Of a stretch of DNA of 64,000 bases, positions 768 to 14,682 are shown in pieces; the first letter of the stretch is position 1, and every line of letters begins with the position of its first letter. The notes beneath the pieces are model-generated. The model was given only the letters and a program-made list of their open reading frames with translations. It was not told where the DNA came from and did not search any database. The position numbers were made by a program, and so were the translations under genes. The stretch lies in the NCBI RefSeq assembly GCF_003018255.1, contig NZ_CP027440.1; one strand, 5' to 3'. The DNA comes from Escherichia coli. Its GTDB lineage: Bacteria > Pseudomonadota > Gammaproteobacteria > Enterobacterales > Enterobacteriaceae.

Positions 768-2306
768 TCACCCAACGCCTTTCGCTGTAAACGGCGGTTT
801 CGCAAACCAAACCAATACCGTAAGTAAGATAAAAGCAATAGCCGCCATACGGAAAATCTCATTTGCAGAAATTGAAAGTGACTGCTGAGTTATTTCATTA
901 TTAATTTCATTAAGAACTCCTGAAAGCGAACCATAGTATTTATCCATAATTTGTGACGATGAATTAAATACGGGGTTAAATTGATCGATGGTTGCTGTCA
1001 ACTGACTATGGTGTAACGATTCGCGTCGTCCCCACAGCGTCATTGTCAACGACGTACCAACTGATCCTGACAAGGTACGAAAAAAATTACTCATACTCGA
1101 GGCATTGGCAAATTTATTATCTGGCAACCCTGAAAACGAAATCGTTGTTAAGGGTAAAAAGAAACAGGCAACGGCGAATCCCTGGAAAAACTGTGGCAAA
1201 ATGATGCCTGTAAAATCAATCGTTGGCATAAATGTCACAGAACGCCAGTAATAGCAAACCGCATACATCAAAAAACTAAATGTCACCAACAACCGCATAT
1301 CAATTTTGTTGCCATAACGTCCTATCAAAGGTGATATTAATAGCGGCATGATGCCGATGGGCGCATAGGCAAGTCCGGCCCATATCGCATTATACCCCAT
1401 CGTTTCCTGGAGTAACTGCGGCATAAGGACTATCGCCCCAGAGTAAAATAAATACGCGCATGTGATACTCACAATACCAATGGTGAAATTACGGGACTTA
1501 AACAAACTGAGATCAAGAATCGGATTCTCTGAGGTCGACTCCCAAATGACTAAAGAAATCAGAGAAATAACTGACACTACTGTTAGTATTATTATTGTAC
1601 TCGAGTTGAACCAATCCAGATCGCGCCCTTTATCAAGCATTATCTGCAAGCCACCAACACCGAGCACTAACAGGGTCAGTCCTGGTAGATTCATTTTGAC
1701 CGGTGAAGTCTCAGTTTCTCTTCCTTTAAGTAAGGTTAAGCATAATGTCAGAACGATAATCCCCATAGGGACATTGATTAAAAATATCCAACCCCAGCTA
1801 AAGTTATCGCAAATATAGCCGCCCAATATCGGCCCACATATCGGAGCGATAATTACGGTCATTGACCATAATGCCAAAGCAAATGTTCTTTTTTCTGGCG
1901 GATAATTCCTTAATAATAAACTCTGTGACAGTGGAATTAACGGCCCCGCCATTAAGCCCTGAACGACTCTAAAAAATATCAGCACATCAAGATTGGTCGA
2001 TAGGCTACACATTAATGAAGATAGTGAAAAAAAGGTTACTGAAAGTAAAAATAATCTTAATTCGCCTATTCTTTGTGCCAGCCTGCCGGTAACAGGGATC
2101 GCAATGGCATTTGCTACGCCAAACGAAGTGATAACCCAGGTGCCTTCGTCTGTTGATGCTCCCAGAAAGCCAGATATTGTCGGTATTGCGACGTTAGAAA
2201 TAGTGGAATCCAACATTTGCATAAACGTCGCTAAGGACAATGCAATAGTAACGCACCATAACGTCCCACCGGTTAATGGTGCCGGAGTTGATTTAGTGAT
2301 TGCCAT
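768..2306 (-). CDS. emrY: MFS multidrug efflux permease (EmrB-like, 14-TM class)
   Basis: 512-aa ORF, hydrophobic throughout; start overlaps emrK stop at 2306; matches EmrY. Confidence 0.93.
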   Translation of the reverse strand: MAITKSTPAPLTGGTLWCVTIALSLATFMQMLDSTISNVAIPTISGFLGASTDEGTWVITSFGVANAIAIPVTGRLAQRIGELRLFLLSVTFFSLSSLMCSLSTNLDVLIFFRVVQGLMAGPLIPLSQSLLLRNYPPEKRTFALALWSMTVIIAPICGPILGGYICDNFSWGWIFLINVPMGIIVLTLCLTLLKGRETETSPVKMNLPGLTLLVLGVGGLQIMLDKGRDLDWFNSSTIIILTVVSVISLISLVIWESTSENPILDLSLFKSRNFTIGIVSITCAYLFYSGAIVLMPQLLQETMGYNAIWAGLAYAPIGIMPLLISPLIGRYGNKIDMRLLVTFSFLMYAVCYYWRSVTFMPTIDFTGIILPQFFQGFAVACFFLPLTTISFSGLPDNKFANASSMSNFFRTLSGSVGTSLTMTLWGRRESLHHSQLTATIDQFNPVFNSSSQIMDKYYGSLSGVLNEINNEITQQSLSISANEIFRMAAIAFILLTVLVWFAKPPFTAKGVG

Positions 2307-3469
2307 TAAAGTTGTCCATTATGCGAAATAATGTTGCTAATTTCTTTTTCTATCGGAGTAGTATCGATAACTAAAGCCTTACTGGTATAAGCAGGCATGG
2401 AGGTCACGGTTGAAGCCAGCTCAGGCATCTCAGCAATGTCTTCGTCCTTCGTATCAATAGTTGCAGTCATCGATAAACCAATACGTAAGGGATGTTCCAT
2501 GAGTTCTTTTGGATCAAGAGAAACTTCAACCGGTACACGCTGAACGATTTTGATCCAGTTCCCTGTCGCATTTTGTGCAGGTAATAAGGAGAACGCATTG
2601 CCGGTTCCCATATTGATTCCTGTCACCCGACCATGAAACACAACATTTTCACCATAAAGATCGCTGATAATATTGACCGATTGACCAATCCGTACATCCG
2701 TGAGTTGTGTTTCTTTAAAGTTGGCATTAACCCACATTTGACGTGCCGGTACGACAGCCATTAACGATTGTCCGGGACTCACTGTTTCGCCGACCTGAAC
2801 ACTTCGCTGGGCAATATAGCCGGTAACAGGACTCTTAATATCCGTACGTTTAAGCGCTAACCAGGCTTCTTTGGTTGCATCTGCCGCTTCAACGACTTGT
2901 GGCTGACGGTTTAATGGTGTGTTCATTACTAAAGCTTTATTCGCTTTATAAGCCTGGATAGCGGCATTCAATGCCGCTTTGCTACTTATTAACGTATCTT
3001 TGGTATGCTCCAGCGTTTCTTTTGAAATAACCCCCTGCTTCGCTAAAGGCACACGACGGTTATAATCTTCTAAAGATTGTTGATACTGAATACGTGCTGA
3101 AGCGACTTCGGCACTGTATTGTTTATCCTGTAAGTACAGTTTATTCGTTTGCCGAACAATATTTGCCAGATTATTTTTAGCTTTATTGAGTGCGATAGTG
3201 GCATCAGTCTTATCCAGTGAGACTAAAATGTCACCCTGTCGAACGTAGTTCGTATCTTTATGATTAACGACAGTGACGCTGCCTGAAACTTGTGCAGAAA
3301 TTGGATCTGCATTCCCCGTGACATAGGCGTCATCTGTACTAATCATGTCTTCTAATTCCATTGACCAATAGGCATAGGCACCTGAAAACGCAATAAATAA
3401 AACTACCGCCAATAAAGAAAAGTATTTTCTTCTGTTAGAATGTTTTTTATTTGAATTAATCTGTTCCAC
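2306..3469 (-). CDS. emrK: Membrane fusion protein of EmrKY efflux pump (HlyD family)
   Basis: 387-aa ORF with N-terminal TM anchor and coiled-coil-like middle; immediately upstream of emrY on same strand. Confidence 0.93.
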   Translation of the reverse strand: MEQINSNKKHSNRRKYFSLLAVVLFIAFSGAYAYWSMELEDMISTDDAYVTGNADPISAQVSGSVTVVNHKDTNYVRQGDILVSLDKTDATIALNKAKNNLANIVRQTNKLYLQDKQYSAEVASARIQYQQSLEDYNRRVPLAKQGVISKETLEHTKDTLISSKAALNAAIQAYKANKALVMNTPLNRQPQVVEAADATKEAWLALKRTDIKSPVTGYIAQRSVQVGETVSPGQSLMAVVPARQMWVNANFKETQLTDVRIGQSVNIISDLYGENVVFHGRVTGINMGTGNAFSLLPAQNATGNWIKIVQRVPVEVSLDPKELMEHPLRIGLSMTATIDTKDEDIAEMPELASTVTSMPAYTSKALVIDTTPIEKEISNIISHNGQL

Positions 3470-3642
3470 TTTTATCTCTCATTTCGCATAGATGAAATTT
3501 ATGAATTGAATGAAAAGAGTATTCATTCTTCATATCAAACACAGTGCATGTGTTGCACATTATCCCAGGAACGTTGGAGGCCTAATTTAAATGAGGTGCA
3601 AAAAAAACAACAGAGGACTAAACCGTGGCTTTTGCAATACAA

Positions 3643-3660
3643 TTCTTACGCATGTAGGAT
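3643..3660. promoter_or_regulatory. EvgA-box-like imperfect inverted repeat in emrK-evgA divergent promoter region
   Basis: TTCTTACG-CA-TGTAGGAT resembles the reported EvgA 18-bp motif TTCPyTACA-N2-TGTAPuGAA; about 175 bp upstream of emrK start. Confidence 0.5.
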
Positions 3661-3884
3661 TAGTGAGAAGACTTATAGTGCTAATGTGAAACTATAAATC
3701 ATCGGTACAATCCCTGATTTTATTGTTGACATTTCATTTATGCCGACTATTTATATGGTATACTTGTTGAATTATCTTAAAGGAAGCTCAAATTTTCTTA
3801 TTTTGATTGAGAAAATGAGATGATGCCTTATGTCTGTATTACTACAGGGAGAAGGGAAATGCTTCATTGCAAAGGGAATAATCT

Positions 3885-4499
3885 ATGAACGCAATAATTA
3901 TTGATGACCATCCTCTTGCTATCGCAGCAATTCGTAATTTATTGATCAAAAACGATATTGAAATCTTAGCGGAGTTGACTGAAGGGGGAAGTGCCGTTCA
4001 GCGGGTGGAAACACTTAAACCTGATATCGTCATCATTGATGTCGATATCCCCGGAGTTAACGGTATCCAGGTGTTAGAAACGCTGAGGAAGCGCCAATAT
4101 AGCGGAATTATTATTATCGTCTCCGCTAAAAATGACCATTTTTACGGGAAACATTGTGCTGATGCTGGCGCTAATGGTTTCGTGAGTAAAAAAGAAGGCA
4201 TGAACAATATCATTGCAGCTATTGAAGCTGCAAAAAATGGCTACTGCTATTTCCCCTTCTCTCTCAACCGGTTTGTTGGAAGTTTAACGTCCGACCAGCA
4301 AAAACTCGACTCCTTATCGAAACAAGAAATTAGTGTCATGCGGTATATTCTTGATGGCAAGGATAATAATGACATTGCTGAAAAAATGTTCATCAGCAAC
4401 AAAACTGTCAGCACTTATAAAAGTCGCTTGATGGAAAAATTAGAATGCAAATCACTGATGGATCTTTACACATTCGCACAACGTAACAAAATCGGCTAA
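3885..4499 (+). CDS. evgA: Response regulator EvgA (receiver domain plus LuxR-type HTH)
   Basis: 204-aa ORF; receiver motifs (IIIDDHP, DIVIIDVDIPG) and C-terminal HTH (ISNKTVSTYKSRLMEKL); AAGGGA Shine-Dalgarno upstream. Confidence 0.95.
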   Translation: MNAIIIDDHPLAIAAIRNLLIKNDIEILAELTEGGSAVQRVETLKPDIVIIDVDIPGVNGIQVLETLRKRQYSGIIIIVSAKNDHFYGKHCADAGANGFVSKKEGMNNIIAAIEAAKNGYCYFPFSLNRFVGSLTSDQQKLDSLSKQEISVMRYILDGKDNNDIAEKMFISNKTVSTYKSRLMEKLECKSLMDLYTFAQRNKIG

Positions 4500-7500: not shown

Positions 7501-8097
7501 ATGCAACATTATGATCTGCTTATTACTGACGTTAATATGCCGAATATGGATGGTTTTGAGTTGACTCGCAAACTCCGAGAGCAAAATTCTTCCTTACCCA
7601 TCTGGGGGCTTACAGCCAACGCACAGGCTAACGAACGTGAAAAAGGGTTAAATTGCGGCATGAACTTATGTTTGTTCAAACCGTTGACTCTGGATGTACT
7701 GAAAACACATTTAAGTCAGTTACACCAGGTTGCGCATATTGCACCTCAGTATCGCCACCTTGATATCGAGGCCCTGAAGAATAATACGGCGAATGATCTA
7801 CAACTGATGCAGGAGATTCTCATGACTTTCCAGCATGAAACGCATAAAGATCTACCCGCTGCGTTTCATGCACTAGAAGCTGGCGATAACAGAACTTTCC
7901 ATCAGTGTATTCATCGCATCCACGGTGCGGCTAACATCCTGAATTTGCAAAAGTTGATTAATATTAGCCACCAGTTAGAAATAACACCTGTTTCAGATGA
8001 CAGTAAGCCTGAAATTCTTCAGTTGCTGAACTCTGTAAAAGAACACATTGCAGAGCTGGACCAGGAGATTACTGTTTTCTGTCAGCAAAATGACTAA
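4504..8097 (+). CDS. evgS: Hybrid sensor histidine kinase EvgS
   Basis: 1197-aa ORF; signal peptide, large periplasmic region, TM, H-box (MSHEIRTPISS), receiver domain (LIADDHPTN...DVNMPNMDGF) and C-terminal HPt (HRIHGAANIL). Confidence 0.95.
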   Translation: MKFLPYIFLLCCGLWSTISFADGDYIEYRGISSNNRVTLDPLRLSNKELRWLASKKNLVIAVHKSQTATLLHTDSQQRIRGINADYLNLLKRALNIKLTLREYADHQKAMDALEDGEVDIVLSHLVASPPLNDDIAATNPLIITFPALVTTLHDSMRPLTSSKPVNIARVANYPPDEVIHQSFPKATIISFTNLYQALASVSAGQNDYFIGSNIITSSMISRYFTHSLNVVKYYNSPRQYNFLLTRKDSIVLNEVLNRFVDALTNEVRYEVSQNWLDTGNLAFLNKPLELTEHEKQWIKQHPDLKVLENPYSPPYSMTDETGSVRGVMGDILNIITLQTGLNFSPITVSHNIHAGTQLNPGGWDILPAAIYSEDRENNVSFAEAFITTPYVFVMQKAPDSEQTLKKGMKVAIPYYYELHSQLKEMYPEVEWIKVDNASAAFHKVKEGELDALVATQLNSRYMIDHYYPNELYHFLIPGVQNASLSFAFPRGEPELKDIINKALNAIPPSEVLRLTEKWIKMPNVTIDTWDLYSEQFYIVTTLSVLLVGSSLLWGFYLLRSVRRRKVIQGDLENQISFRKALSDSLPNPTYVVNWQGNVISHNSAFEHYFTADYYKNAMLPLENSESPFKDVFSNTHEVTAETKENRTIYTQVFEIDNGIEKRCINHWHTLCNLPASEHAVYICGWQDITETRDLIHALEVERNKAINATVAKSQFLATMSHEIRTPISSIMGFLELLSGSGLSKEQRVEAISLAYATGQSLLGLIGEILDVDKIESGNYQLQPQWVDIPTLVQNTCHSFGAIAASKSIALSCSSTLPERYLVKIDPQAFKQVLSNLLSNALKFTTEGAVKITTSLGHIDDNHAVIKMTIMDSGSGLSQEEQQQLFKRYSQTSAGRQQTGSGLGLMICKELIKNMQGDLSLESHPGIGTIFTITIPVEITQQVAAVEAKAEQPITLPEKLSILIADDHPTNRLLLKRQLNLLGYDVDEATDGVQALHKVSMQHYDLLITDVNMPNMDGFELTRKLREQNSSLPIWGLTANAQANEREKGLNCGMNLCLFKPLTLDVLKTHLSQLHQVAHIAPQYRHLDIEALKNNTANDLQLMQEILMTFQHETHKDLPAAFHALEAGDNRTFHQCIHRIHGAANILNLQKLINISHQLEITPVSDDSKPEILQLLNSVKEHIAELDQEITVFCQQND

Positions 8098-8152: not shown

Positions 8153-9298
8153 TTATGATGAGAACTCCTGGCGAATTTGTTCCCCATGCTGGTCGAGCGT
8201 TGCCGCTCCCGGCATAACATGCGGGTCCGCGCAGCCGCTGATTTTTATCGGATTCCCCGGCATCATTATTCCCCCGGCTTCAATCAACATATTTCTCGCC
8301 TGAGTTTGTGGCAAATTAATGGCCTCAGCCACACTTAATAACGGCGCGACGGGTACACCAACTTCATGTATTCTGGCTAACCAAACTTCAGCTGCCTGCG
8401 TTTTTAACGTCCGCTCAATATATTGTTTAAGAATAGCCTGGTTTTGTACGCGTAAAATATTGCTGCTAAATCTGGGATCATTAACCAGTTCCGTAAGCTC
8501 CAGTGCCTGGCATAACGCAGAAAAAAGCTTGTCATTACCACAACAAATCGTAATCGGCTTATCCTGAGTATCGAAAACATCAAAAGGTGCCATGTAGGGA
8601 TGGCGATTTCCCAGGCGTTGTGGTGACTTCCCTGTCGCAATATATGCCATCAGACCATGCTCCAGAAAACTCAGCGTGGCATCAAACATCGCTATATCGA
8701 CATGCGCCCCTCTTTGGCTCTTTTCGCGGCCATAAAGTGCACTCACTATTCCGCTGAATAAATAGACACCGCCGCATAGATCCGCAAGAGAGGTACCCAC
8801 GCGCACTGGCGGAGCATCAGGGTATCCTGTTTCCATCATTATCCCGCTCATTGCCTGAATGATGGTATCGTAGGCAGGAGCATCTTTTAGCGGACCGGTA
8901 TGTCCGAAACCTGACGATGAAGCATATATAAGGCGCGGGTTGATTTCTTGTAACCTTTCCCATGAAAACCCGAGTTTTTCCATTGTACCTGGGCGAAAAT
9001 TCTCAGCTAATACATCCGCTTGTTTAAGCATATTTATAAATATACTTTTATCGTGATCATTCTTTAAATCAAGAACCACACTCTCTTTGCCATGATTAAT
9101 AAAACTGTAATAGAGTGACTGTCCATCCACATAGGGACCAAATGTGCGGGTATCATCACCATGACCCGGCGGCTCAACTTTAATTACCCTTGCGCCCATA
9201 TTACAAAGAAGTTGAGTTCCGAAAGGCCCATTAAGGACATGCGTCATATCGATAACTAATAAGCCTTCAAACGGCCCTTTGCATTCATTATTTGTCAT
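8153..9298 (-). CDS. yfdE: Family III CoA-transferase (acetyl-CoA:oxalate CoA-transferase)
   Basis: ORF paralogous to frc in this window (both carry CoA-transferase family III motifs); start chosen at MTNNECKGPFEG (381 aa) rather than the first in-frame ATG at 9337. Confidence 0.88.
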   Translation of the reverse strand: MTNNECKGPFEGLLVIDMTHVLNGPFGTQLLCNMGARVIKVEPPGHGDDTRTFGPYVDGQSLYYSFINHGKESVVLDLKNDHDKSIFINMLKQADVLAENFRPGTMEKLGFSWERLQEINPRLIYASSSGFGHTGPLKDAPAYDTIIQAMSGIMMETGYPDAPPVRVGTSLADLCGGVYLFSGIVSALYGREKSQRGAHVDIAMFDATLSFLEHGLMAYIATGKSPQRLGNRHPYMAPFDVFDTQDKPITICCGNDKLFSALCQALELTELVNDPRFSSNILRVQNQAILKQYIERTLKTQAAEVWLARIHEVGVPVAPLLSVAEAINLPQTQARNMLIEAGGIMMPGNPIKISGCADPHVMPGAATLDQHGEQIRQEFSS

Positions 9299-13896: not shown

Positions 13897-14529
13897 TTAG
13901 TTCACAAACAGTGCTTCGCTATCGACGATGATTCCATCTTCCGCACCTTTAAGCGCCAGGTTTGCCTCGTAGTATTGCTTTTTATCAAGCAGTTTCTGCG
14001 CATCAGCAAGTGCATTACGAGTCTGTTTGAGCGGCATCAGATATTGGTTTTCCATTACACCAACACCGGCCAGGCGAAGCTCTTCCATTGCGCCCTTTTT
14101 ATCCCCTTTCGCCATTTTTTCGTTGGCAATTTTTATCGCGGCTTCTTTTTCGGGTGTCGCTACATAACTCTCAGAAATTCCGACAGATGCATTAATGACA
14201 ATATATTGGTCATCATTGAGATTGGTCTTTTTACCTGGCTTAGCGAACTTTGCCCATTCGGTACTGTCATCTGACAACAAAGCTGAAGCTTCATTGGTCA
14301 GTTCTTTTGCCTTTTCCGGATCGCCATGAAACAGAGCCAGGCGCGCTACCTGCACGTCACGCATCGCATATAAACCTTGTTCAGAGATACGCTCTGCTGC
14401 TGCCGTTTTCTGGGTTTGCTGAACTTGCTGAGTTTGCTGTTGTGCCGCTACCGGTGCATTATCAGCAGCCCATACAGTTGAAGATGCCAGAATTGCTGTG
14501 ACCATCGTAGCCATAATTAAACGTTTCAT
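13897..14529 (-). CDS. yfdX: Periplasmic YfdX-family protein
   Basis: 210-aa ORF with signal peptide ([21 protein letters not shown]), Q-rich linker; first gene of the yfdX-frc-oxc-yfdVE cluster. Confidence 0.9.
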
Positions 14530-14626: not shown

Positions 14627-14682
14627 ATCTTACAGTTGTAGTTATTATCGCAAGAAGTATTTTAGTCTTACAATTGTAGGAA
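14627..14682. promoter_or_regulatory. Two tandem EvgA-box-like inverted repeats upstream of yfdX
   Basis: ATCTTACA-GT-TGTAGTTA (14627-14644) and GTCTTACA-AT-TGTAGGAA (14665-14682), 100-150 bp upstream of yfdX start. Confidence 0.55.

Follow-up and report, generated by a model that had tools for sequence, protein, structure and literature searches.

An 18-bp EvgA box in the divergent emrK/evgA spacer of Escherichia coli is very likely the operator of the emrKY promoter

Background

The '7-2-7' operators of NarL consist of two inverted heptamers of the type TACYYMT and are occupied by a dimer of GerE/LuxR-type helix-turn-helix domains. EvgA takes its name from its homologue BvgA. At the fhaB promoter of Bordetella pertussis, inverted TTTCCTA-like half-sites are located far upstream (near -88) and weaker sites follow toward the -35 region; the Bordetella bvgAS operon is clearly positively autoregulated. 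For EvgA, Masuda and Church reportedly described in 2003 an 18-bp inverted repeat with the consensus TTCYTACA-N2-TGTARGAA. The motif is said to have been obtained with AlignACE in 'six upstream regions of all seven operons', and all six regions are said to have been gel-shifted.

The emrK/evgA locus resembles both systems. As in the NarL operators, two inverted half-sites 2 bp apart would be bound by a dimer, but the EvgA half-site is the 8-mer TTCYTACA instead of the heptamer TACYYMT and the regulon is a different one. With fhaB-bvgAS the locus shares a NarL/FixJ-type regulator, an unorthodox phosphorelay and a target operon that is divergent from the regulator operon; relative to the predicted emrK start, the inverted repeat would also be far upstream, with a weaker candidate half-site on the way to the -35 region. 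It differs in the sequence and the spacing of the half-sites and in the autoregulation, which is clear for bvgAS and disputed for evgAS, while an occupancy by several EvgA dimers is suggested solely by the RTCYTM element described below.

Binding of EvgA to the emrKY promoter region has been reported (Kato 2000, as cited in PMC9496106 and PMC8174306), and transcription of emrKY is EvgA-dependent (PMC8174306). In Shigella, an emrK-gfp fusion and the emrK mRNA were silent in evgA and evgS deletion strains (PMC6393483). The emrK promoter was described as 'directly regulated by EvgA' and serves as a direct reporter of EvgA (PMC5706723). According to EcoCyc, EvgA is the only regulator common to ydeP and emrKY (PMC8174306).

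Results and discussion

Location of the site

The analysed stretch of 64 kb of E. coli chromosomal DNA, in the following called the window, reads TTCTTACGCATGTAGGAT at 3643..3660, between the divergent genes emrK on the minus strand and evgA on the plus strand. The positions of the two genes (Table 1) leave a spacer of 415 bp (3470..3884), thus the location given in the earlier note agreed exactly with the sequence and the ORF coordinates. The box is situated 173 bp upstream of the emrK start codon. The gene layout of K-12 MG1655 is identical, plus the 9-codon evgL; K-12 coordinates equal window coordinates + 2,479,870, which places the box at K-12 2483513..2483530. EvgA was identified by the NCBIfam equivalog NF007419 (437.9 bits; cut-off 251), and the emrK ORF was assigned by NCBIfam to the EmrA/EmrK-family adaptors. 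Solved structures of EvgA are 5F64, 8ZWN and 3F6C. An Rfam scan revealed no RNA family at 3300-4000.

Table 1 Features of the emrK/evgA locus and further EvgA boxes in the window
Feature	Position	Strand	Remarks
EvgA box	3643..3660	-	toward emrK: ATCCTACA-TG-CGTAAGAA; distal half CCTACA-type, proximal half TAAGAA-type
RTCYTM element GTCCTC	3613..3618	-	24 nt downstream of the box, emrK side
Predicted emrK -10 hexamer TTAAAT	3585..3590	-	offset 53-58 from the box, same as in ydeP and safA
emrK, regulated gene; periplasmic adaptor of the EmrKY-TolC MFS efflux pump, 387 aa	2306..3469	-	RefSeq annotation of near-identical genomes, NCBIfam
emrY, MFS permease; second gene of the regulated operon	768..2306	-	annotation, NCBIfam
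evgA, NarL/FixJ-type response regulator expected to recognise the box, 204 aa	3885..4499	+	annotation, NCBIfam
evgS, hybrid sensor kinase phosphorylating EvgA, 1197 aa	4504..8097	+	annotation
evgL, leader peptide MLHCKGNNL, translationally coupled to evgA	3859..3888	+	K-12 annotation b4781; PMC11210196
Consensus -35 TTGACA of the likely sigma-70 evgA promoter	3726..3731	+	66 bp right of the box; TATTTATAT at 3748-3756 follows
Extended -10 TGgTATACT (3756-3764) and reported sigma-S evgA start site (3771)	3756..3771	+	sequence; PMC11210196
Perfect EvgA box TTCTTACAACTGTAAGAA	13636..13653	-	252 bp upstream of frc
Two EvgA boxes 38 bp apart	14627..14682	-	upstream of yfdX; 14627-14644 (3 mismatches), 14665-14682 (1 mismatch)

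Match to the EvgA consensus

The consensus TTCYTACA-NN-TGTARGAA was tested against the window and against K-12 regions. The 18-mer agreed with it in 14 of the 16 specified positions, and the spacing of the half-sites was exactly 2 bp. The left half, TTCTTACg, and the right half, read as reverse complement aTCCTACA, each matched in 7 of 8 positions. The earlier note had described an EvgA-box-like palindrome; the likeness to the 18-bp EvgA repeat was borne out, but as a self-complementary palindrome the site is poor, with 5 of 8 arm positions pairing, and it was not among the repeats returned by an inverted-repeat search with 6-nt seeds. Its significance therefore derives from the fit of each half to the EvgA half-site and not from self-complementarity.

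With up to three mismatches allowed, the consensus matched four times in the 64-kb window compared to an expectation of 0.60, and none of 100 shuffles reached four matches. The remaining three matches were located upstream of frc and yfdX, both of them induced by EvgA. In K-12, the upstream regions of ydeP, safA-ydeO, yegR, frc and yfdX each had a match with at most two mismatches, a single one for safA-ydeO (1 mismatch), ydeP (2) and yegR (1). A symmetrised leave-one-out matrix was constructed from the five other boxes (ydeP, safA, yegR, frc, yfdX). On this matrix the 18-mer scored 17.06 bits and ranked third; of the 63,983 window positions, only two of the training sites scored higher. The training sites had been located with the consensus, so this test is not fully independent of it. 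In first-order Markov windows, scores of at least 17.06 bits are expected 0.02 times per random 64 kb, or about 1e-4 times per 415-bp spacer, and the best match in the window outside the regulon reached 10.7 bits. Neither the consensus scan nor the matrix scan revealed a second candidate EvgA box in the emrK/evgA spacer. The 18-mer at 3643-3660 is probably the EvgA motif site that Masuda and Church reportedly published in 2003 for the emrK/evgA region. A count of six regions for seven operons fits a single region shared by emrKY and evgAS, and it fits the six regions recovered here with the consensus.

Like the boxes of ydeP, safA-ydeO, yegR, frc and yfdX in K-12, the emrK box is an 8-2-8 repeat of the type TTCYTACA-NN-TGTARGAA; in this case evgA is encoded next door. 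It has two conserved departures from the consensus, G at position 8 and T at position 18. Because of them its score of 17 bits is the lowest among the primary boxes, the others reaching 22-28 bits. It is also the only regulon box in a divergent spacer that is shared with the operon of the regulator itself.

A two-mismatch match to the consensus, TTCTTACGCATGAAAGAA, was observed in the coding region of mdtE of K-12 (L084, 7887-7904; 13.4 bits). Its left half and spacer are the same as in the emrK box of the window, and the match is probably due to chance. The yfdX gene of the window (13897-14529) encodes 210 aa compared to 211 aa in K-12, an in-frame difference of 3 bp.

Conservation

A 701-bp query spanning the spacer was found in 5392 of 5426 complete E. 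coli genomes, with the genes annotated as emrK and evgA. Nine E. coli spacers, sampled across the identity range of 95.9-100 %, were aligned. Both half-sites were invariant in all nine, and the sole variation within the box was the unspecified spacer base 3652, an A in the window and a C in the other eight genomes. Word-based counts over the 5426 genomes yielded 369 genomes with the spacer CA of the window, a minority allele, and 4889 with the CC of K-12. This difference is probably neutral, because the spacer bases vary freely among the boxes of the regulon.

In the species-level genome collection, two diverged loci have the same divergent arrangement of emrK and evgA. In locus L002, with an EvgA 98 % identical, the box TTCTTACACCTGTAGGAA is a perfect consensus; in locus L003, with an EvgA 94 % identical, the box TTCTTACACGTGTAGGCA has one mismatch. 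The substitutions in the boxes of both loci are toward the consensus. Most of the spacer next to emrK could not be aligned to L003, and the block TTTTGNAATACAATTCTTACNCNTGTAGG forms a conserved island. The sequence of L003 (NZ_CACVAF010000001.1) is labelled Yersinia vastinensis; its strongly diverged spacer next to an EvgA of 94 % identity points to a horizontal transfer or a labelling problem. It is also without 29 bp that cover the sigma-S -10 element and the start site of evgA.

The spacer contains another inverted repeat, GAAGACTTATAGT-N11-ACTATAAATCATC (3667-3703), a better one than the EvgA box and located 13 bp to its right. The core of this second repeat, TTATAGT-N11-ACTATAA (3673-3697), has the ATAGT/ACTAT cores kept in L002 and L003, and both arms contain the -10-like hexamer TATAGT on opposite strands.

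Promoter architecture on the emrK side

Each box was oriented toward its gene, and the downstream sequences were compared by offset. A common layout was apparent for emrK, ydeP and safA: the box, 24 nt, the element RTCYTM, 22 nt and a -10-like hexamer. RTCYTM was located at exactly offset 25 in ydeP, safA and yegR as well as in all four emrK orthologues; no further copy was present up to 90 nt from the boxes, and the background frequency amounts to approximately 0.001 per position. Its versions in the emrK loci, GTCCTC (window), ATCTTC (L002) and GTCTTC (L003), differ at the degenerate positions only. RTCYTM resembles the half-site TTCYTA, is positioned at about -41..-36 and could be an additional EvgA half-site adjoining the -35 region. 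At offset 53-58 the -10-like hexamer is TAATTT in ydeP, TATATT in safA, TTAAAT in emrK and TAGAAT in the emrK locus of L003; it is shifted to offset 52-57 in frc (CATATT) and yegR (TATATT), and the proximal yfdX box has TATGAT at offset 54. The weaker of the two yfdX boxes (14627-14644), which is the proximal one, is at the canonical distance. Overall, the offsets from box to RTCYTM and from box to -10 hexamer in ydeP, safA and yegR match those of emrK. The asymmetry of the box, with a distal half of the CCTACA type and a proximal half of the TAAGAA type, was the same in ydeP, safA, yfdX and emrK and was never reversed.

The ydeP 5' leader begins 178 nt before the ATG (PMC11210196). An extended -10 element, TGtTAATTT, is located just upstream of this leader start, which sets the centre of the ydeP box at -74.5. 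Applied to emrK, the shared spacing predicts that transcription starts at about 3577 (K-12 ~2483447), with the box centred at approximately -74.5. The hexamer TTAAAT matches the -10 consensus in 4 of 6 positions and was missed by a simple sigma-70 promoter scan.

Other promoters for emrK were considered and rejected. TCGGCA-18-TAAAAT (3746..3717, minus strand) was the sole minus-strand match of the sigma-70 scan in the spacer, below the chance expectation, and was dismissed because the box would fall inside the transcript. Minus-strand TTGTAT (3642..3637), as a -35 element adjoining the box, is followed by no acceptable -10 element 15-18 nt on, neither in the window nor in L003. The extended -10 element TGgGATAAT (3568..3560) is possible for emrK, but it would place the box at about -98 and break the spacing observed for ydeP and safA.

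The Cappable-seq supplement lists no start site in range for emrK. In the supplement of Kim et al. 2012, the only entry is a plus-strand start inside emrK that was assigned to evgA, and none is given for emrK. This start, at ~3272 of the window (old K-12 coordinate 2481164, 33 reads), is antisense in the emrK coding region, is preceded by TATGAT and would give evgA a leader of 613 nt; a transcript from there would cross the emrK promoter and the box.

Proposed mechanism

The 18-mer is with high probability the EvgA operator of the emrKY promoter, a reading that draws on the sequence, the statistics, the conservation, the shared architecture and the literature. The sensor EvgS would be switched on by mild acid together with alkali metal under oxidising conditions. 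Phosphorylated EvgA, as a NarL/FixJ-type dimer, would then bind to the two inverted TTCYTACA half-sites, whose centre is placed ~74.5 bp upstream of the predicted emrK start site. More EvgA protomers may spread downstream to the weak half-site-like GTCCTC (3618..3613) by the -35 region, and EvgA would recruit the RNA polymerase to a promoter with a poor -35 region and the -10 element TTAAAT. The site would be directional, with an asymmetry and a spacing that fit emrK and not evgA, and would presumably leave evgA unaffected. Control of the efflux pump, which the earlier note had proposed, is thus upheld by the fit to the regulon matrix, the conservation, the spacing shared with ydeP and safA and the reports on EvgA binding and EvgA-dependent emrK expression. 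An EvgA box upstream of emrKY is already known, and control of emrKY by EvgA has been reported since 2000, so the finding has little weight as a discovery; it is a case of a genuine operator recognised from sequence alone.

By analogy with BvgA at fhaB, the position of RTCYTM suggests that the interval from the primary box to the RNA polymerase is occupied by additional EvgA protomers. The element at its fixed offset would indicate how EvgA bound at about -74.5 reaches the polymerase. A wider proposal is tentative and rather doubtful: that the box belongs to a fixed directional module (box, 24 nt, RTCYTM, 22 nt, -10) in emrK, ydeP, safA and yegR. If true, several EvgA dimers would be loaded side by side in a BvgA-like manner over the stretch between about -83 and the -35 region. 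The module would also account for the activation of emrKY alone, without evgAS, by a site located between the two divergent operons. The directional architecture and RTCYTM have to be seen as modest candidate additions to the known EvgA box.

Alternative explanations

A functionless near-match that arose by chance in an A/T-rich intergenic region could account for the low self-complementarity (5/8) and the two mismatches to the consensus, and the mdtE coding sequence of K-12 contains a match with the same number of mismatches. Against it stand the rarity of such matrix scores in a 64-kb sequence or a 415-bp spacer, the conserved island in diverged orthologous spacers with substitutions toward the consensus, and the position upstream of an operon known as EvgA-dependent; chance is effectively refuted. 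Only slightly less improbable is an operator of another regulator of the NarL/FixJ family, e.g., RcsB, NarL or UhpA, with EvgA acting elsewhere in the spacer. Members of this family recognise short A/T-rich inverted repeats, and the closest relatives of EvgA by NCBIfam score include FimZ, NarL, UvrY and RcsB. However, the 8-2-8 motif is found again specifically in front of the EvgA-induced operons ydeP, safA-ydeO, yegR, frc and yfdX, the spacer offers no alternative candidate box, and EvgA alone is shared by ydeP and emrKY in EcoCyc (PMC8174306). For RcsB and NarL, moreover, neither the half-site order nor the regulon fits.

The earlier note had also assigned the autoregulation of evgAS to the same site. 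In such a bidirectional operator, one EvgA dimer site would activate emrKY leftward and positively autoregulate evgAS rightward. The spacer contains a single box, evgA was reported to be autoregulatory (Tanabe 1998, as cited in PMC11210196), and EvgA was entered as auto-regulating with one site and weak evidence (PMC3219618). In addition, distant loci that lack emrK have their best matrix match at the regulator gene, and plasmid copies without emrK have kept the box (see below), which keeps the bidirectional or autoregulatory reading alive at a low probability. The anatomy of the evgA side argues against it. The evgA start site was located at -114 from the ATG, with use of sigma-S and sigma-70 (PMC11210196), and a strong RpoS-holoenzyme SELEX peak was found at emrK/evgA (PMC5493296). 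With the start at 3771 the box centre is at about -119.5, far upstream of a -35 element TTGACA that was kept in all aligned sequences, and neither RTCYTM nor a -10 hexamer is present at the canonical offsets from the box on the evgA side. The literature is conflicting: evgAS 'is not autoregulated' (Eguchi 2003, as cited in PMC8174306), evgA fusions did not respond to acid despite the earlier report of autoregulation (PMC11210196), and the evgA mRNA was unchanged while emrK was induced in macrophages (PMC6393483). The orientation and spacing of the box for emrK fit those reports in which evgAS is not appreciably autoregulated. One site serving both operons is unproven, unlikely on this evidence and probably wrong, and the box is primarily, perhaps exclusively, the operator of emrKY.

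Regulator genes without emrK

Four distant loci with EvgA homologues of 66-71 % identity (L004, L005, L006 and L008 from Hafnia, Klebsiella, Enterobacter and Buttiauxella) have no adjoining emrK; genes for an amino-acid permease and a LysR regulator are among those found nearby. In all four, the best matrix match of the whole locus (10-11.5 bits) was located just upstream of the regulator gene, and TTCCTACAGCTGTCATCC was this match in both Klebsiella and Buttiauxella. In relatives without emrKY, the box beside the regulator gene may serve another neighbour or a true autoregulation. IS1-flanked copies of evgAS on plasmids have kept the box, while emrK is gone. Between 14 and 20 plasmid records contain the region. 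On the 114-kb plasmid pCFSAN061762 (L092, NZ_CP042902.1, 7167-13893), IS1-flanked evgA-evgS is accompanied by the box at 9016-9033 and no emrK. The same plasmid carries a YmgB/AriR-family gene with a yegR-type box, TTCCTTCTTATGTAGGAA, ahead of it (7570-7587).
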